NCBI GenBank assembly: GCA_003554445.1
Contig: PWGJ01000086.1
Coordinates: 1 to 46,017, forward strand
Reading direction: 5' to 3'
DNA from: Candidatus Nealsonbacteria bacterium
GTDB lineage: Bacteria > Patescibacteriota > Minisyncoccia > Minisyncoccales > PWPS01
Length of the DNA stretch: 46,017 nt
Part shown: piece after piece, positions 1,785-44,905 of the stretch
Layout of the letters: each line of letters begins with the position of its first letter
How positions within the stretch are numbered: position 1 is the first letter of the stretch
Notes under the pieces: model-generated
What the model was told of the DNA's origin: nothing
The model's input: only the letters and a program-made list of their open reading frames with translations
The model's database searches: none
Program-made: the position numbers and the translations under genes

Positions 1785-2576
1785 TTAATCGACTTCTTCC
1801 GAAACTCTTTCTTTAATTACTTCTCTGGCCACTTCTCCTATTCTTCTTGTCAACCTGAAATAATTTACAGTTTGCAGGCTTTTTTCTTTTAGTTGAGATA
1901 CTTTTCCGTTGATTGGTTTTTCGTTTAATTTTCGACTTACTTCAGCGTGCAAATTCTTCAATACTAAAATTTTATCGGATATATAATTTTCTCCGAACTC
2001 GTTGACCATCAACCTAATCTTGTATGCCAGATCAAATGATTGAACCGTGTCCACTAAAAGAATTCCGTAAGTTACTCCCAGAACAAAAATAAAAAGACTT
2101 CCAACAACCAATTCTCGCATTAAATAATTAAAATAAGGAAAGATTGAATACTTGAAAAACAGACCCAAAATCAACCAGTAAAATAAAAAGGTCGGGCATA
2201 CAAAACCGTTTAGATTAAATCTCCTGTCGGAATAATCCCAAAGCCTTAATTTAAATATCTTTTTAAAAAAGATGCCGGTTAAATACTCTATTACTCCGAC
2301 AATTACTAAAAATATAATAAAAGAAGCTATTAATGAGAAATCACTCAAATAAGAGAAGGAAAAATAAGCTATAAGGCCACCGAATCCGTATATCGGAAGA
2401 TAAGGACCCCGCAAAAATCCCGGATTAGTGATCTTTTTGGACTGAACCGATCTATATAAAAGCTCTATAATCCAACCTGAAAGCGCAAAGAGAAAAAAAG
2501 AGATTAAAATATTTTCAAAACCGATTTCCATAACACAAACAAAATAAAGTTCTATTAACGTAATTAACCATAACAC
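1785..2576 (-). CDS. Polytopic membrane protein, putative ABC-transporter type IV (CmpB-like) family
   Basis: Multiple hydrophobic helices. The N-terminal IELLYRS and GPYLPIYGFGG motifs are typical of that family as I recall it. Confidence 0.4.
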   Translation of the reverse strand: MLWLITLIELYFVCVMEIGFENILISFFLFALSGWIIELLYRSVQSKKITNPGFLRGPYLPIYGFGGLIAYFSFSYLSDFSLIASFIIFLVIVGVIEYLTGIFFKKIFKLRLWDYSDRRFNLNGFVCPTFLFYWLILGLFFKYSIFPYFNYLMRELVVGSLFIFVLGVTYGILLVDTVQSFDLAYKIRLMVNEFGENYISDKILVLKNLHAEVSRKLNEKPINGKVSQLKEKSLQTVNYFRLTRRIGEVAREVIKERVSEEVD

Positions 2577-2611
2577 AAAAAACCCGTCTAAAAAAACAGA
2601 TTTGAAAGCTG

Positions 2612-3385
2612 TTACTTATTTTTTGAGGGAGGCCAAGGTATAAATTTATTCACTCTTCGCTTATAATCTTGAAATCCTTCTTTTTGGGACATGCTTTTTT
2701 CAAGCAATGGAATTCCGGAAACCTTGAGTATTAAAAAAGTTATGGTTACCGGACTCAATAAAGCTAAAATCCAACCCGGAAACCCTATACTCAAAATCCA
2801 AATACCCCACCACTGAGCCACCTCTCCAAAATAATTCGGATGCCTACTCCAAGCCCATAACCCCGACTGCATAATCCCCTCTTTTTGTGGGTCCTCGATA
2901 AATTTTTTTAATTGACAATCGGCAATTACCTCAAAATAAAATCCCGTAATCCATATTACAATTCCCATCTTATTAATAAGAGTGAATGTTTCCGGATTTC
3001 GGTTTATTGCCAAAACGGGTAAAGATATAATATACAATAAAAACCCTTGTAAAAGATAAATTTGAAAAAAAGATCTGAGACGAAACCACTTCCATTCTTT
3101 TCTCCACTTCTTATATCTGTAATCCTCTTCTCTACCTTTGTTTCTTAAATAGACGTGACCGGAAAGCCTCAAACCCCAAAGAGTTACAAAGGCGGTTACC
3201 AGTCCGGACTCGATTGAAAATCCTACCGATTGATAGCCAAAATAGAATGAAGTTAATGCTAAAAGAACAAAACCCAACCCCCAGGCCACATCAGCTAAAT
3301 CATTCCTTTTTTTAATTAAGGAAACTACAAACCAAAGAGATAGATGGATAAATAAAAAAAGGGCTAGAATCAAATAATAATTCAT
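2612..3385 (-). CDS. DUF1295 / steroid 5-alpha-reductase-like membrane protein
   Basis: Polytopic membrane protein with the C-terminal SRHPNYFGEVAQWWG motif characteristic of the DUF1295 / isoprenylcysteine methyltransferase-like fold. Confidence 0.65.
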   Translation of the reverse strand: MNYYLILALFLFIHLSLWFVVSLIKKRNDLADVAWGLGFVLLALTSFYFGYQSVGFSIESGLVTAFVTLWGLRLSGHVYLRNKGREEDYRYKKWRKEWKWFRLRSFFQIYLLQGFLLYIISLPVLAINRNPETFTLINKMGIVIWITGFYFEVIADCQLKKFIEDPQKEGIMQSGLWAWSRHPNYFGEVAQWWGIWILSIGFPGWILALLSPVTITFLILKVSGIPLLEKSMSQKEGFQDYKRRVNKFIPWPPSKNK

Positions 3386-3777
3386 ATTATAAGCTCAATT
3401 ATTAAAAAATAAGTAATTACCGATACACTGCCACCGATAAATGAACCCCAAAAAAGATCTACTACGGTTACCGAAATGGACCAACCCTTAATAGTAGCCA
3501 AGTTGGTTAAATCATAAGTCGCATAGGCTATGAGGCCAAAAAGAGCACCTGAAAAAAAGCTCTCAATCCAACTGCTTGCCTCGATCGCCGGCTCGATCGA
3601 AAAGATGGTTAGTCCTAAAATAAAAAGGAGATAGAAAATAGCTGCCGCTATCCAATTGACACTTTCTCGCATCAAAAATCCAATCTTCTTTTGATAAAAA
3701 TCTTTAGCGATAACACCCAACCAAAGAGCATCCATGAAAAGGAATACAAATAAGGCTATAAAATAGATTTTAAACAT
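3382..3777 (-). CDS. DUF2177 family small membrane protein
   Basis: 131 aa with 4 predicted TM helices. The N-terminus FLFMDALWLGVIAKDFYQKKIG resembles the DUF2177 signature. There is a 4-nt start/stop overlap with the DUF1295 gene. Confidence 0.5.
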   Translation of the reverse strand: MFKIYFIALFVFLFMDALWLGVIAKDFYQKKIGFLMRESVNWIAAAIFYLLFILGLTIFSIEPAIEASSWIESFFSGALFGLIAYATYDLTNLATIKGWSISVTVVDLFWGSFIGGSVSVITYFLIIELII

Positions 3778-21484: not shown

Positions 21485-21560
21485 GGTATTTTTTAAAAAA
21501 TAAATTTTCGACCTTTTTTGTTTTCACCTTTATTCTAACACAACTTTATTATTTGGCAAC

Positions 21561-21592
21561 AAAAACCCTCACAGCTAATTGTGAGGGTTTTT
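21561..21592 (-). terminator. Bidirectional intrinsic terminator after the hyper-acidic protein gene
   Basis: AAAAA-CCCTCACA-gctaat-TGTGAGGG-TTTTT. Confidence 0.6.
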
Positions 21593-21602
21593 ATACTTAT
21601 TT

Positions 21603-21620
21603 TATTGCAAATTGAAATTA
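21603..21620. repeat. 18-bp direct repeat, copy 1 (partner at 21973-21990)
   Basis: tattgcaaattgaaatta is identical at both sites, 370 bp apart. Confidence 0.9.
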
Positions 21621-21908
21621 CAACTCAAGGTCTTCCTCGTCTTCCTCATCTTCTTCGAGGTCTTCCTCGTCTTCCTCATCTTCTTCGAGGTCTTCTTCTA
21701 ATTCGTCATCGAAATCTTCCTCGAGATCCTCTTCGAACTCGTCGTCGAAGTCGTCATCGAGGTCTTCGTCGAAGTCGTCATCGAAGTCCTCTTCGAAGTC
21801 GTCATCAATAGGATCAATCTCTTCAACCTCATCAGTCATCGCTACTCCTATGATAACGAGTAAAACGATAATTACTGCAACAACAATTAAAATTGTTTTT
21901 TTATCCAT
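21618..21908 (-). CDS. Small membrane-anchored hyper-acidic (D/E repeat) protein
   Basis: MDKKTILIVVAVIIVLLVIIGVAM anchor followed by ~65 residues that are almost entirely D/E/F/L repeats. It has its own terminator. Confidence 0.55.
   Translation of the reverse strand: MDKKTILIVVAVIIVLLVIIGVAMTDEVEEIDPIDDDFEEDFDDDFDEDLDDDFDDEFEEDLEEDFDDELEEDLEEDEEDEEDLEEDEEDEEDLEL
21629..21695. repeat. 30-bp tandem repeat x2.2 inside the acidic protein CDS
   Basis: ggtcttcctcgtcttcctcatcttcttcga at 21629-21658 is repeated exactly at 21659-21688, then a partial third copy follows. Confidence 0.9.
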
Positions 21909-21971
21909 TTTTTTAGCTCATTAATTTAAGCCGACCTTTTTTCCTTGTAGAATTATAAAAGAAATGAAAAT

Positions 21972-23371: not shown

Positions 23372-24607
23372 ATGCAAATAAAATTCAAGAAGGCATCAAT
23401 TGAAAAATATAAAAGCATCAGAAGCCCTGTAAATATAAACGGGTTTTCCAAATTCAATATTTTAGTGGGTCCGAATAACGCCGGAAAGACCAATGTACTT
23501 GACGCTTTGGAGCTTATCTTTAATCCAAAAAAGGAAAGTTTGCACCGAAAAGAGGCAAAAATTGATATTGTTTTGGAAGTTGAAGGAGAAGAAAAACTCT
23601 TTAATTATTCCCAAAAAAAAATTCGGCCGAGTCTAAGCAAAAAGTCACGATTAATCAGGATTAATGACTCCATATCCATAAAAAAGATTGCCACGGAAGA
23701 ATTGCAGCGCTTTAAGGATCAATACGAGTCGGATTATAGAAAGCTTTCATCCACGATTGAAGAGTACTTTCAAGACATCCAGATGAGTGAAGATCTCTTC
23801 AAGGCTAATATCAAAACAAAAGATGGCAAAAAATCTCTAAAAAGAATGGGGGACGGATTTAAAAGGCTCTTCGTTATTCTTTTTTATATCTACCATCCGG
23901 AATACGATATAATTTTAATTGATGAGCCTGAACTTCATCTACACCCTTCAGTCATTAAAAAATTTCTAAAGATATTAAATAAAGAAGAAGTTGACACTCA
24001 AGTTTTGATGACTACTCATCACCCCACGATGGTTCAGGCTAAATTTTTAGATAAAACTTGGCGAATTGCCAGGGATGATTCTCACAGTACTTCAATTTAT
24101 AAATTTAACGAAAAATCATCTCTTGATATCGATCGTTTTGTTCAAGAGATAAATGATGATAATTCGGCAATGCTCTTTGCCGATAAGGTTTTGCTGGTCG
24201 AGGGTGTTTCGGATAGTATACTTATGAGAGAATTGATTGATAAATTTTACACTGGCAGGGAGGATATAAAAGTTGTCTATTCGGGTGGGGTCGGTGATAT
24301 CGACCTGTATGAAAAAGTTTGTGAGATCTTTAATATTCCCTACAAAGTAATGATTGACGGTGATATGCTGGAGATGTATTGGCAAAAAAAATTCGGCAAA
24401 AAAAAGAGCCCTCGAAAAGAAGTAAAACGGGATCTTCTGGAGAAAGAAAACATATTCGTTCTCAAAGGTGACCTTGAGGATAATTATCCTAAAAAATATC
24501 AAAAAAGAGACACTAAGCCACTTAATGCTCTTTTTGCCGGAAATAAAATAAACGAGAGTGATTTTTCAAATATGAGTGAATTGAAAAGAGTGATTGAGAA
24601 CCTCTAA
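23372..24607 (+). CDS. OLD-family nuclease (ABC-type ATPase + Toprim), compact 411 aa
   Basis: Walker A GPNNAGKT, signature-like GDGFKRLF, Walker B ILIDEPELHLHP, H-loop TTHHP, then Toprim LLVEGVSDSILM and IDGD. Confidence 0.8.
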   Translation: MQIKFKKASIEKYKSIRSPVNINGFSKFNILVGPNNAGKTNVLDALELIFNPKKESLHRKEAKIDIVLEVEGEEKLFNYSQKKIRPSLSKKSRLIRINDSISIKKIATEELQRFKDQYESDYRKLSSTIEEYFQDIQMSEDLFKANIKTKDGKKSLKRMGDGFKRLFVILFYIYHPEYDIILIDEPELHLHPSVIKKFLKILNKEEVDTQVLMTTHHPTMVQAKFLDKTWRIARDDSHSTSIYKFNEKSSLDIDRFVQEINDDNSAMLFADKVLLVEGVSDSILMRELIDKFYTGREDIKVVYSGGVGDIDLYEKVCEIFNIPYKVMIDGDMLEMYWQKKFGKKKSPRKEVKRDLLEKENIFVLKGDLEDNYPKKYQKRDTKPLNALFAGNKINESDFSNMSELKRVIENL

Positions 24608-42242: not shown

Positions 42243-43373
42243 TTAATCAATAAAACTGAGTATTATGTCTTTATTATAAACTATATTGTAGATTATTCCC
42301 AAAACGAAGACCAGAATAATCGGATATGTTAGTAGTTTGTATTTAGCCGGTCTATACTTTTGATACATTATCGTTATCAAGGTAGCATCAATCGCCAAAA
42401 GAGTTGCTCCGACAAAAGATATAACCTGTATGTAATCATCGAGACCGATCACGAAAGCGGTAATCGGAATAAATGTAACTACCGCCCAAGCTATTTTTTC
42501 ATGAACCCCTAAATCATACCACAAAATCTTTTTCAAGGTTAAGCCCAGAGTAACAAATGAAGTAAATGTAGCTAAAATACCAAAGACTAAAGCTAACCCG
42601 ACCACTCCATTGTCCAAATGATCAACCAAACCCAAAATACCTTCTTTTGAAGTTTCCGCACCGGTAATTCCGACGACAACGAATATGAAAAAAAGATAAA
42701 TTAAAACAGCCAATCCGATCCCCACCGGAGCCACCCATTTCAACTTTTCTTTTTCCCCCGTCAGCTCTTCTTCCACTTCCGGTATTAACGCAGCTCCCCA
42801 AAGCGAAAAAAGTACTGCCCCGTAAGGTAAAAAGAGATCGCCACTAAAACCTTCTCCGACTTCAAGAAATAGACTTGGATTTATATCACCCCAACCTCTC
42901 ACGAGTATTAAAAAAAGAACCATTAAAAAGCCAACTATCCCCAAAAATTCAACCTTTTCAATCGCTTTTATACCGAAAAATATAAAAGCGGCACCGATCG
43001 CCCAATACAAAAGTGAATATTCAAAAGGGCCACCACCGACAACATCCCCGAAAATTCCCGACAAAAACTCTCCTCCTAAAATAATATAAGCTAATATTGA
43101 ACCGGAAAGACCGATTATCCCGGTACAGGTTGTCAATTTTTTAGCCCAGGGACCCAAATGAATACCTGCAAAGCTCGGAAATCTGAGATTGTCTTCCGTG
43201 CGCAGAGCCAGTTGACCGAAAAAGTGATGAATCGCAATGGATATGAGTCCCAAAAATAAGAAATAAAGTAAAATTACTCCGGATCCCACTTGTGTAGTTA
43301 TATAAGGAAGAGCAAAAAGTCCTGCCCCTATCATCGTCCCCGCAAGAATCGAAACGGCATAAATGAACTTCAT
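42243..43373 (-). CDS. Amino-acid permease, HAAAP (Trp/Tyr/Ser-type) family-like
   Basis: N-terminal AGTMIGAGLFALPY motif and ~11 TM helices. Confidence 0.65.
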   Translation of the reverse strand: MKFIYAVSILAGTMIGAGLFALPYITTQVGSGVILLYFLFLGLISIAIHHFFGQLALRTEDNLRFPSFAGIHLGPWAKKLTTCTGIIGLSGSILAYIILGGEFLSGIFGDVVGGGPFEYSLLYWAIGAAFIFFGIKAIEKVEFLGIVGFLMVLFLILVRGWGDINPSLFLEVGEGFSGDLFLPYGAVLFSLWGAALIPEVEEELTGEKEKLKWVAPVGIGLAVLIYLFFIFVVVGITGAETSKEGILGLVDHLDNGVVGLALVFGILATFTSFVTLGLTLKKILWYDLGVHEKIAWAVVTFIPITAFVIGLDDYIQVISFVGATLLAIDATLITIMYQKYRPAKYKLLTYPIILVFVLGIIYNIVYNKDIILSFID

Positions 43374-43599
43374 AAAAGTTTCTTTATAAATTTAAATACT
43401 TATATAAGGTTACAATAAAAAAAATCAGTTGAAAACCCCATTAAGATTTCACGAGTTGGTTCTGCCGAAATGCTTTTTTAAAACAAAGCACCTTTGCGAA
43501 GAAGCTCTCGCAGGTAGTTTAGCATGGTTCAGCTGTACCGAAATGCTTTTAGAACGCAAATACCCTCACTGAGAGAATATTTTACTTTTAAAATAAAAA

Positions 43600-43728
43600 T
43601 ACCCTCTCTGAAGAAGTTCGCGGAGGCGATTTGGCATGGTCGCGACATAGTCGCGCAAATCGCTGAGCGCACAACCTCCAAAATCGCCACTGGCGATTCT
43701 TGAGGGGTGATTCTTCAAACGAGGGTGT
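43600..43728. ncRNA. Candidate structured RNA element, copy C (most divergent)
   Basis: Pairings: ACCCTC/GAGGGT, GAAGAAT/ATTCTTC and GCGATTTG/CAAATCGC. Hairpins: CGCGAC-ata-GTCGCG and CCTCCAAAATCGCC-act-GGCGATTCTTGAGG. The unpaired GCATGGT is conserved. Strand undetermined. Confidence 0.45.
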
Positions 43729-43870
43729 TAATCCTTTTTGCTTTCAAATGAAAACACCTTTTTCGGAGAAGCTCTCGGAAGTAATTTAGCATGGCTTTCA
43801 GAGTGAAAATACCCTCACTGAGAGAACTCTCGCAGGAATTTCAGCACGGTTTCTAGCCCCAGAACGCAAA

Positions 43871-43998
43871 TACCCCTTTCGGAGAAGCTCTCGGAAGTAA
43901 TTTAGCACGGTTTTCAGCTTTGCTGAAATAAATTACTGAGAGCGCAGGAATCAAATTTTCGCTGGAAAATTTGAATTCCGATTCTCACGAAAGGGGTA
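43871..43998. ncRNA. Candidate structured RNA element, copy B
   Basis: Pairings: TACCCCTTTC/GAAAGGGGTA (10/10), GAGAA/TTCTC, GCTCTCG..GTAATTTA/TAAATTAC.GAGAGC. Hairpins: TTTCAGC-ttt-GCTGAAA and GGAATCAAATTTTC-gctg-GAAAATTTGAATTCC. Unpaired GCACGGT. Confidence 0.45.
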
Positions 43999-44006
43999 TT
44001 AAGTGA

Positions 44007-44029
44007 TGTGACCCCGAGGGGAATTGAAC
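44007..44029 (-). repeat. Orphan duplicate of the tRNA-Glu 3' end (T-loop through discriminator and 2 nt of trailer)
   Basis: tgtgaccccgaggggaattgaac matches 44197-44219 at 22 of 23 positions, exactly 190 bp away. The 5' side of the T stem and the rest of the tRNA are absent. Confidence 0.85.
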
Positions 44030-44060
44030 GTCGCTTCGCTTTTTTTGCTTTCAAATGAAA

Positions 44061-44189
44061 ACACCCTTTTAGAAGAAGCTCTCGCAGGTAATTTAGCATG
44101 GCTTTCAGCTTTGCTGAAATAAATTACCGAGAGCGCAAGAACCAAAATCCCGCTGGGATTTTGAGTTGTGATTCTTACGAAAAGGGTGT
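44061..44189. ncRNA. Candidate structured RNA element, copy A (adjacent to tRNA-Glu 3' end)
   Basis: Pairings: ACACCCTTTT/AAAAGGGTGT (10/10), AAGAA/TTCTT, GCTCTCG..GGTAATTTA/TAAATTACCGAGAGC. Hairpins: TTTCAGC-ttt-GCTGAAA and AAAATCCC-gct-GGGATTTT. Unpaired GCATGGC. Confidence 0.45.
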
Positions 44190-44198
44190 TGAATGCTG

Positions 44199-44273
44199 TG
44201 ACCCCGAGGGGATTTGAACCCCTGTTACCAGGATGAGAACCTGGCGTCCTGGACCAAGCTAGACGACGGGGCC
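44199..44273 (-). tRNA. tRNA-Glu (anticodon CUC)
   Basis: The reverse complement is GGCCCCGTCGTCTAGCTTGGTCCAGGACGCCAGGTTCTCATCCTGGTAACAGGGGTTCAAATCCCCTCGGGGTCA. It forms a cloverleaf with anticodon loop TTCTCAT and closely parallels canonical bacterial tRNA-Glu. 75 nt, and CCA is not encoded. Confidence 0.9.
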
Positions 44274-44286
44274 GACTACACTGGTT

Positions 44287-44314
44287 ATTTTACCAGAGAA
44301 ATCTTTTTTGTAAA
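44287..44314 (-). promoter_or_regulatory. Candidate tRNA-Glu promoter, -35 TTTACA / 16 nt / -10 TAAAAT
   Basis: The reverse complement of 44309-44314 is TTTACA and of 44287-44292 is TAAAAT. The -10 ends 13 nt before the mature tRNA 5' end. Confidence 0.4.
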
Positions 44315-44905
44315 CTAATTTTTTATCTTTTGAGTCAGACTAACAAAATTAATATTCAGAAGAACACCTACTCCCAAAGATGCAACTACTTGCAAAACAT
44401 CATCTTCCGTCTTTTTTCCGGGAATCCATACCGGGACACTGCTTCCGTCATAATTAAGTTTAAAATTCGTTTTTTTATCATGTATATTCATATCACTAAT
44501 GTTGAAATCGGCTTCCGAATCAAATCCGAAACTCAAAAAATATTTCATTCTTTTTCCGGAAAATTTTTCTTTGCTTTCAAAATCAACCAGCAATGTATCA
44601 CTCTTTTTCATCGTTTGTATTACCTCCTTTTCATCAGTTATATTTTCCGAATTAACTACGGTTATAACTTCCCTGAAATTGGAGAAAAGATCTTCAGTTT
44701 TTTGATTATTGCCCTCTCTTGTCACTATAATCACATCATAAAAAATAAAAAGTAATCTATTCATCCCTCTATCGGTTGGCTCAACCCTTTTCACTTTTAA
44801 AAAATCTTGAATTAAATCAAAGATAAAATCTGCAGTCTCCGTACTATTTTTACCCGTTACGAAAACAAGCTTGACACCTTTCCATTTTAATATGCTTTTT
44901 ATCAT
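44315..44905 (-). CDS. Half-size, degenerate Mur-ligase-like protein (central domain only; possibly a relic)
   Basis: 196 aa in the position where murE/murF usually follows ftsI. VFVTGKNSTE sits where the Mur ligase P-loop TGTNGKT would be, but the Lys-Thr is lost. The tail NYDGSSVPVWIPGKKTEDDVLQVVASLGVGVLLNI resembles the end of the Mur central domain. Confidence 0.4.
   Translation of the reverse strand: MIKSILKWKGVKLVFVTGKNSTETADFIFDLIQDFLKVKRVEPTDRGMNRLLFIFYDVIIVTREGNNQKTEDLFSNFREVITVVNSENITDEKEVIQTMKKSDTLLVDFESKEKFSGKRMKYFLSFGFDSEADFNISDMNIHDKKTNFKLNYDGSSVPVWIPGKKTEDDVLQVVASLGVGVLLNINFVSLTQKIKN

Follow-up and report, generated by a model that had tools for sequence, protein, structure and literature searches.

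What kind of sequence fills the 941-nt gap between a permease gene (42243-43373, minus strand) and the gene for a 196-aa protein (44315-44905, minus strand) in a Candidatus Nealsonbacteria genome (GenBank assembly GCA_003554445.1; the window analysed here is the stretch of 46,017 nt at positions 1 to 46,017 of contig PWGJ01000086.1)? A preliminary description, made from the letters of the sequence, had recognised there three full copies (A, B and C) and four left-half fragments of one multi-helix element, which it took to be either a noncoding RNA family or a mobile element. The repeats are indeed where it placed them, in an array spanning 43484-44189 with three full copies and four partial copies that hold the 5' arm only; of the extent that it gave (43488-44219) the array part stands, but 44198-44219 belongs to a minus-strand tRNA-Glu gene, of which it forms the 3' end. 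Here we report that the copies belong to a previously uncatalogued element family of the ultra-small Patescibacteria (Candidate Phyla Radiation, CPR) with a three-armed fold of ~130-140 nt, that this family is real and structurally selected, and that it occupies unrelated sites in different genomes. Between the two proposals the evidence leans to a mobile element on account of the dispersed unrelated loci, the empty syntenic sites, an in-frame insertion in tsaD and the strain-variable arrays. The explanation that we favour, with a probability of roughly 0.5, is a new, structure-constrained, non-autonomous, low-copy insertion element of Patescibacteria that is mobilised in trans and whose array at tRNA-Glu is a growth-and-decay pile-up.

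Patescibacteria have tiny genomes, few recognised mobile elements and very few described noncoding RNAs. Deep conservation, strong covariation, insertion in operons and in an essential gene, and variable tRNA-linked arrays together point to either a new cellular structured RNA or a structure-dependent mobile element; in both cases the biology of a large and poorly understood part of the bacterial tree would gain a component, and the covariance model described below is a handle for finding all copies and the partner protein.

Fold, strand and conservation of the element

Copies A (44061-44189), B (43870-43999) and C (43599-43729; E-type subtype), all on the plus strand, match the covariance model with 130, 132 and 101 bits, respectively. 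Each folds alone into one common three-way junction, with all the helices listed in the preliminary description present in the minimum-free-energy structures; the fold energies are -54.6 (A), -62.9 (B) and -61.0 (C) kcal/mol, corresponding to z-scores of -6.6, -9.2 and -6.4 against dinucleotide shuffles, and 0 of 200 shuffles were as stable. The element is about 130-145 nt long, and its plus-strand consensus reads, 5' to 3', GCGAGG, the variable helix P1 (15-20 bp), GAAGCUCUCG, a GSA bulge, P2b, a GCAYGGU bulge, the P2c hairpin, P2b', CGAGAGC, GCAR, the P3 hairpin (loop CGCUGG, with a bulged A), GGUUC, P1' and CCGAGCG. Canonical copies, which are GC-richer and come from other genomes, keep the same architecture.

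Three copies are too few to establish covariation; a covariance model gathered 24 distinct full copies. RNAalifold predicted 39 pairs from 16 copies, 24 of them with compensatory changes. Across the 24 distinct copies, pairing is found in 93.2% of cells versus 72.9% in shuffles, 30 of the 39 pairs are changed on both sides, and the covariation score is 0.628 versus 0.235 in shuffles; none of 500 shuffles reached any of the five measures, and slid-partner controls were 37-52% paired. This check on further homologues, which the preliminary description had proposed, thus bears out its notion of matched arm changes for P1, P2b, P2c and P3 (in helix 1, 6 of 8 pairs are changed on both sides) but not for P2a: GCUCUC/GAGAGC and the bulges are invariant, and as P2a never covaries it is a sequence motif. 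Selection on secondary structure across the family is strongly supported. The most conserved part is the interior core, nearly invariant from AT-rich to GC-rich genomes, whereas the termini vary and covary, P1 forming a 10-20-bp terminal inverted repeat in every full copy.

The plus strand, which reads GAAGCUCUCG, is the folded strand. The ratio of G.U to A.C in pairs (46:15) favours it, and whether RNA or DNA parameters are used it exceeds the minus strand in stability in 23 of 24 copies. The mean difference is 7.6 kcal/mol, and the consensus fold energy is -40.9 kcal/mol on the plus versus -31.0 kcal/mol on the minus strand. Furthermore, the distal part of P1 carries conserved tandem G.A/A.G mismatches (5'-GCGAGG / CCGAGC-3') that would read U.C/C.U on the minus strand; as DNA, too, the GCGAAGC mini-hairpin and tandem sheared G.A pairs have very high stability.

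We also considered and rejected three readings of the conserved nucleotides. A K-turn in P2a and its bulge is at odds with the G.A/A.G register, which needs G where 4 of 16 copies have C. GCATGG as a start codon behind GGAGG conflicts with the ACG found there in several copies and is out of frame with tsaD. A conserved open reading frame (ORF) is likewise discounted, no reading frame being common to the copies, as the preliminary description had stated. In one copy (L020, 1450-1628; L numbers designate loci) the 3' strand of the P2a region, invariant elsewhere, is interrupted by an extra ~35 nt that contain two small hairpins; this copy still scores 69 bits against the covariance model.

Comparison with Rfam 15 returned only tRNA matches at gathering score in the window and nothing credible at E<=10 over 43300-44400, and the canonical copies in L021, L023, L026 and L027 gave no match, which agrees with the preliminary description, in which it was recognised as none of several known families. 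ARAGORN and Rfam called only the neighbouring tRNA-Glu and a distant tRNA-Gln, the copies themselves being neither tRNA nor transfer-messenger RNA (tmRNA), and full-text literature searches that included the invariant sequence strings found no description of the element.

Distribution and insertion sites in other genomes

Homologues were sought with a degenerate pattern of the conserved 5' core that was so strict that copy numbers are lower bounds, and carrier genomes were represented by 8-20-kb pieces. The pattern matched 16 metagenome loci and 11 loci in species-representative genomes. In viral contigs it had no match; a looser gapped pattern gave at least 120 viral matches, which we regard as chance because none of the first 100 loci matches the covariance model. 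The six source genomes are all uncultured metagenome-assembled genomes (MAGs), four titled Patescibacteria and two titled only 'bacterium'; carriers comprise Wildermuthbacteria, Saccharibacteria and 'Patescibacteria group' MAGs, and one MAG has copies on at least four contigs.

The copies lie in intergenic spacers of housekeeping operons, mostly in antisense: between groES and groEL and between lemA and htpX (both L026), between grpE and dnaK (L029), between ruvB and yebC (L027), in the L5-L6 part of the ribosomal protein operon (locus L035), in the atp operon (a half copy; L013/L031), next to recR (L020), upstream of ruvA (L023/L032) and, with differing P1 sequences, upstream of fusA in three genomes (L015, L021 and L033). 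The element usually starts 0-35 nt past the upstream stop codon and, of 15 independent contexts, runs antisense to its neighbouring genes in 12, the sense copies being those in tsaD, L012 and L019. Syntenic sites in relatives are empty. The groES-groEL spacer measures 5 nt in L167, 24 nt in L170 and 135 nt in L168, and the lemA-htpX spacer 37 nt in L168, none of them with a model match, while both spacers are filled in L026. As the nearest GroEL relatives are only ~80% identical in protein sequence, presence and absence were scored rather than base-level junctions.

The element can also sit in frame inside a gene. In one Wildermuthbacteria-type clade it lies in sense orientation within tsaD, whose product is an enzyme for tRNA t6A modification (L025, 6050-6193; L014, 8145-8285; L030, 1-134), and the L025 tsaD ORF (408 aa) reads through it. 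The product has 400-421 aa with the element versus 353-361 aa in the nearest relatives without it; the closest relatives lack exactly the 46-48-codon stretch, and the extra residues fall in a variable loop. Five clade members that are mutually 60-65% identical keep the element, indels in the insert come in multiples of three (141 and 144 nt), and two sequenced versions have a 3-nt difference in P2c, the hairpin being kept by compensatory changes.

Several genes near dispersed copies are recorded here in their own right. A tRNA-Glu gene lies 0.8-1.8 kb from the element in two other independent contexts (L014/L024/L025 and L020), and a tRNA-Pro gene lies 195 nt from the L019 copy; there may be a weak general association of the element with tRNA genes. 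In L023 a gene for the RNA ligase RtcB (2239-3702) is found 1.8 kb from the Saccharibacteria copy upstream of ruvA, a single case.

The array beside tRNA-Glu

Loci related to that in the window were reached via orthologues of the 196-aa gene (52-58% identical) in other soda-lake species. Every such locus has tRNA-Glu(CTC) and then, within about 8 nt and in the same convergent orientation, a full element preceded by one to several half-units; the tRNA-element junction of the window is also present in L039, L043 and L044, and the element follows tRNA-Glu in four related soda-lake species, always 8 nt from the tRNA 3' end in this lineage. About five subtypes (A, B, C/E, D and F) occur in an order that differs between genomes. 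D-type copies share 94-96% identity between species, the tRNA-proximal one matching the tRNA in its degree of conservation, compared to ~70% at the DNA level for the adjacent gene and 50-72% for the gene-tRNA spacer in those species. Moreover, strains with an identical 196-aa protein differ in array content (L006, L016 and L022): L006 and L016 have a B/A hybrid and their contigs show a single full copy beside the tRNA, short-read contigs breaking within the array, and L022 has a longer array that was invaded by an unrelated 25-nt hairpin repeat. This repeat (TATCAAATAGGTCGAACCTATTTTTA) has six insertions inside L022 half-units, at sites between 342 and 752, and is absent from the window.

In the window, the tRNA-Glu(CTC) gene occupies 44198-44273 on the minus strand (ARAGORN; Rfam tRNA, 58.4 bits) and is convergent with the element copies, its 3' end lying 8 nt from the end of copy A. 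Upstream of it, at 44287-44314 on the minus strand, a consensus match alone suggests a sigma-70-like promoter (TTTACA-16-TAAAAT with an upstream TG), from which transcripts would continue antisense through the array toward the permease gene. Read from the permease side, with all units on the plus strand, the array begins with half-unit f1 (43484-43529; A-like subtype; direct-repeat family and alignment), a 5' arm only, composed of P1-5', P1b-5', P2a-5', a bulge, P2b-5' and GCATGG. The short half-unit f2 (43550-43588; repeat family and array parsing) has the leader TAGAACGCAA, 19 nt of a D-type 5' arm and then a T-rich linker. Copy C follows, with P2c as CGCGAC-ATA-GTCGCG and P3 as AATCGCC/GGCGATT, and is 84% identical to the E-type copy of L044. 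The next segment (43734-43798; repeats, alignment and parsing) comprises the linker TTTTTGCTTTCAAATGAAA and half-unit f3, a B-like 5' arm that ends in GCATGGCTTT and whose 5' part proper lies at about 43754-43796. Half-unit f4 (43799-43859; repeat family and parsing) is a regular 61-nt module of leader CAGAGTGAAA, D-type 5' arm up to GCACGG and T-rich linker; its D-type is present as a full copy beside tRNA-Glu in L022, L043 and L044.

Beyond copy B, positions 44008-44029 duplicate the 3' end of a tRNA-Glu-type gene, 22 nt that read antisense on the plus strand as GTGACCCCGAGGGGAATTGAAC (two matches, none expected). This piece is a fragment and not a gene; its spacing from copy B equals that of the real tRNA from copy A, and it lies within a 60-nt repeat of the window (43970-44029 and 44160-44219). 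The fragment and its GTCG(CTTC) extension are identical in the window, L022 and L044. By direct reading, 44030-44060 holds GTCGCTTCGC and then a T-run and the linker TTTTTTTGCTTTCAAATGAAA, which leads into copy A and recurs ahead of every unit. Copy A itself is made up of P1 (44061-44070 / 44180-44189), P1b (44073-44077 / 44172-44176), P2a (44078-44084 / 44128-44134), the bulge CAG (44085-44087), P2b (44088-44095 / 44120-44127), the bulge GCATGGC (44096-44102), the P2c hairpin (44103-44119), the junction GCAAG (44135-44139) and the P3 hairpin (44140-44167). Copies within one genome are mutually only 66-81% identical. The G+C content of the array is 0.44-0.48 versus 0.31-0.38 in the flanks, so the region is GC-richer than its surroundings, as had been noted, albeit modestly. 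We also observed that GTCGCTTCGC (44030-44039; also in L044) is the reverse complement of the canonical P2c loop region (..CGAGCGAAGCGAGG..), and that CGTCGCTTCGC, which resembles GTCGCTTCGC, lies downstream of the L019 copy.

When the array is split at the leader YAGAAYGMAA, most half-units turn out to be regular 61-64-nt modules (leader, 5' arm to GCAYGG, T-rich linker) rather than random debris, a regularity that the term 'left-half fragments' did not convey; the adjacent tRNA-Glu gene and the duplicated tRNA end had been missed as well. The linker with the next leader resembles the P2c hairpin with the start of the 3' arm of a full copy (compare UCUUUUC-GCUA-GAAAAGAAAAUCC in a full copy and UUUUUGCC-UUUA-GAAUGAAAAUACC at a half-unit junction). 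Canonical P2c is often UCCGAGCG-AA-GCGAGGA, its 5' strand being identical to the 3' end of the element and its 3' strand to the 5' end, and the half copy in the atp operon ends exactly at ..GGTTCCGAGCG. All copies are flanked by CGAG (canonical) or GAAUGA (this lineage), a motif that is constant between sites; it may belong to the element itself, represent a fixed target or serve as a crossover core. In minus-strand orientation the units end alike on the 3' side, with an A-run, and are cut short on the 5' side, one of them extending into the tRNA; no permuted or right-half-only copies were found.

This grammar suggests that new units were added at the tRNA-proximal end, and the arrangement of copy B, the tRNA fragment and copy A, with its duplicated 22-nt tRNA end, would preserve one such addition. 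Older units may then have lost the right arm and the spacer by deletion between direct repeats, giving rise to 61-nt half-units. Direct repeats are available because P2c shares short motifs with the two termini of the element, UUCCGAGCG / GCGAGGA in canonical copies and the GAAUGA type here, and the deletion could proceed by homologous or by site-specific recombination. Alternatively, cDNA from tRNA-Glu read-through transcripts (promoter 44314-44287) would also fit the units. An enzyme encoded elsewhere would recognise the folded strand and the end motif, and a circular or excised form would join the 3' end to the 5' end, UUCCGAG to GAAUAC, here UUGAAUGA to AAAUACCC.

Origin of the family: explanations and analogies

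A trans-mobilised insertion element, our preferred explanation, would have either RNA or its cDNA or single-stranded DNA as intermediate, with RNA or its cDNA slightly ahead. A number of observations weigh against such an element. Neither a mobilising enzyme nor an excised form was found in the pieces examined: scans for transposase, integrase, reverse transcriptase (RT) and HUH proteins detected none in the parts of the window that they covered (1-31.5 and 36.5-46 kb) and none among 68 neighbouring ORFs of other loci, about 200 kb of flanking sequence showed no transposase, the search of the fetched loci for a longer autonomous element sharing these ends gave only motif matches at chance level, and partner-protein enrichment among the 68 ORFs yielded only housekeeping families and one RtcB in one locus. 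No plus-strand promoter for the element was detected. The empty sites come from much diverged genomes, no recent and precisely bounded empty/filled pair having been found, and the 12:3 orientation bias is only modestly significant. Conservation is higher in the interior than at the termini, opposite to what ordinary transposon relics show, and the copy number in our scans is low (1-5 per genome). In addition, an identity of 94-96% for D-type copies beside ~70% for the adjacent gene implies strong constraint or recent exchange, and the persistence at orthologous positions with compensatory changes (in tsaD, upstream of fusA in L015/L021/L033, and at tRNA-Glu in four species) fits host-level selection better than it fits a decaying parasite.

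The last three of these points (copy number, D-type identity and orthologous persistence) would be expected of a host-functional small RNA gene family, for example a protein-binding scaffold, whose array is a gene amplification with pseudogenised half copies, and so would the invariance of unpaired and core nucleotides across very different genomes while the helices covary. We regard this as a serious rival, though less probable than the insertion element. Against it, one copy is embedded in coding sequence, where in-frame read-through is kept and indels are multiples of three, other copies lie a few nt past stop codons in operons, antisense and without recognisable promoter or terminator, syntenic spacers differ in presence and absence, and non-functional half-units are conserved between species as well as full copies. 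It is rather unlikely that the family is a selfish nucleic acid of a new kind, a noncoding structured RNA or cDNA of ~140 nt that spreads via a recruited enzyme and for which the tRNA-Glu locus is a trap. On that account an enzyme of the host, or one encoded in trans, would be recruited by the conserved core, the equivalence of the two hairpin ends would point to an intermediate that is circular or hairpin-capped, and the tRNA promoter would transcribe antisense copies and half-copies of several subtypes as a piRNA-cluster-like or CRISPR-like record that could silence incoming elements. A cis-acting role in minus-strand transcripts, as a terminator, an insulator or a processing or stability hairpin of the repetitive extragenic palindromic (REP) or enterobacterial repetitive intergenic consensus (ERIC) kind, would account for the 12 of 15 contexts in which transcription of the flanking genes or tRNA reads the reverse complement, for the usual start 0-35 nt after a stop codon, for the stem and U-rich tract (GGGUAUUUUCAUUCU) that end the reverse complement of each unit in this lineage, for two such sites being flagged as terminator-like on the minus strand and for a tRNA-Glu promoter that points into the array. 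We nonetheless deem it very unlikely: the pair ratio of 46:15 and the stability of 23 of 24 copies favour the plus strand, the conserved tandem G.A at the P1 end would become U.C/C.U, a 130-nt three-way junction with invariant bulges is unneeded for a terminator or stabiliser, and the tsaD, L012 and L019 copies are oppositely oriented.

Two further explanations we hold to be improbable to a similar degree. A new class of self-processing RNA (self-cleaving ribozyme or small circle of intron-like or viroid-like kind) with DNA copies made by reverse transcription would share with small ribozymes the conserved core, the covarying peripheral helices, the several copies per genome and the tandem arrays. 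The termini pair flush, and the motif that they carry recurs at the tip of P2c, so that in a circular form the hairpins at both ends would be equivalent; the minus-strand units with their common 3' end and A-run, their 5' truncation and the 22 nt into the tRNA look cDNA-like. However, the Rfam ribozyme and intron models give no match, the frame is kept in the tsaD copies, which speaks for translation rather than splicing, cleavage inside an essential mRNA would be harmful, and neither an RT near any copy nor permuted copies were seen. Similarly, an ordinary MITE (miniature inverted-repeat transposable element), that is, a DDE transposon remnant shortened by internal deletion, with terminal inverted repeats and target-site duplication, whose transposase resides elsewhere in the genome, would be in keeping with P1 as 15-20-bp terminal inverted repeats, with the 4-6 nt (CGAG canonical, GAAUGA here) directly repeated just outside or at both ends and with the dispersed, mostly intergenic locations. 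This was the outcome against which the preliminary description had set its own proposal, and what we find instead is that the termini vary and covary between copies and lineages while the interior core is nearly invariant and the most conserved part, so that the pattern of conserved termini around a free interior fails. The flanking direct motif is constant and not site-dependent, the fold's asymmetry between strands speaks against a double-stranded substrate, and about 200 kb of flanks showed no cognate transposase, nor did the fetched loci yield any longer element with the same ends.

Rickettsia palindromic elements (RPEs) and ERIC/REP-type repeats offer the nearest analogies to the element, which is set apart from them by fold, conservation pattern, strand and tRNA-linked arrays. 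RPEs are found between genes and in frame inside essential protein genes of small-genome bacteria, and are high-copy and decaying. They are reportedly (Ogata et al. 2000) ~100-150 nt long, with strong hairpin potential and with no gene or known enzyme. Our element resembles them in size, in hairpin potential, in having neither its own gene nor a known mobilising enzyme and in being a structured repeat that is read through in frame in a protein gene, here tsaD, a likeness of behaviour and not of homology; it differs in being low-copy, with a core that is invariant across Patescibacteria classes, in its tRNA-linked tandem arrays and in its taxon. REPs are 20-40-nt palindromes with hundreds of copies and a REP-associated tyrosine transposase (RAYT), and in ERIC and Correia elements a simple long hairpin has fixed ends and is accompanied by TA duplications. 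Like ERIC (or intergenic repeat units, IRU), Correia and REP elements with their bacterial interspersed mosaic elements (BIME), the present copies are structured repeats between cistrons just past stop codons, with orientation bias and clustered units. By contrast, they form a three-way junction whose folded strand is mostly antisense to mRNA, and, unlike REP/BIME-RAYT systems, have a unit of 130-145 nt in 1-5 copies per genome, with no Y1/HUH protein among the neighbours scanned.

Integron attC sites are 57-141 nt long, conserve structure over sequence and act as a folded single strand with conserved unpaired bases, and integron arrays run head to tail, vary between strains, grow at one end and lose units by deletion between successive sites. 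The structure-conserved folded strand and the head-to-tail, strain-variable array growing at one end are reminiscent of this. However, the GTTRRRY / RYYYAAC boxes are absent save GTTGAAT at the 3' foot of copy A (B, C, D-type, F-type and all canonical copies are without GTT, and no 5' foot has RYYYAAC), no integrase was seen among the window ORFs scanned, the units are 20-60 nt apart without an ORF, and dispersed single copies exist, in keeping with the preliminary description, which did not recognise an attC site. The ends of IS200/IS605 elements and the RNAs derived from them (palindrome-associated transposable mini-elements, PATE; TnpB omega-RNA) fold strand-specifically, and the two ends are not mutually paired. 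The likeness lies in the same short motif at left flank and right end with no variable target duplication, in a structured scaffold of ~130-150 nt that abuts flanking DNA and in a strand-specific fold, but here the two ends pair in a long helix, no TnpA(Y1)/TnpB lies near any copy, the Rfam IS605-orfB and HEARO models are unmatched, and the orientation relative to genes is opposite to expectation for lagging-strand-template insertion. Small self-cleaving ribozymes, viroid-like RNAs and retrozymes likewise combine a conserved core and covarying helices with dispersed copies and tandem arrays, yet no catalogued ribozyme matches and one copy is in frame in an essential mRNA. The resemblance of the closing helix and hairpins to retron msr-msd is superficial, with no RT near any copy. 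Type III toxin-antitoxin RNAs differ in that they are tandem ~36-nt repeats before a ToxN-type gene, whereas the units here measure 61 or about 190 nt and the array neighbours are the permease, tRNA-Glu and the 196-aa protein, which has no Pfam match.

Elsewhere in the window, the array gap, which had been described as the only long gene-free stretch, is not the only gap of note, but the second one, of 487 nt (21485-21971), is coding because it encodes a small acidic protein. The gene (~21620-21907, minus strand) specifies a product with a hydrophobic N-terminal segment and a long repetitive tail that is D/E/F-rich and very acidic. A clean hairpin terminator follows the gene, and a weak covariance-model match at 21706-21824 falls in this coding region. 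Finally, an OLD-family ATPase/TOPRIM nuclease gene at 23372-24607 (AAA_21, AAA_15 and OLD-like_TOPRIM), possibly serving defence, is on the plus strand, the only such ORF among the first 30 scanned (1-31.5 kb), its neighbours being on the minus strand.

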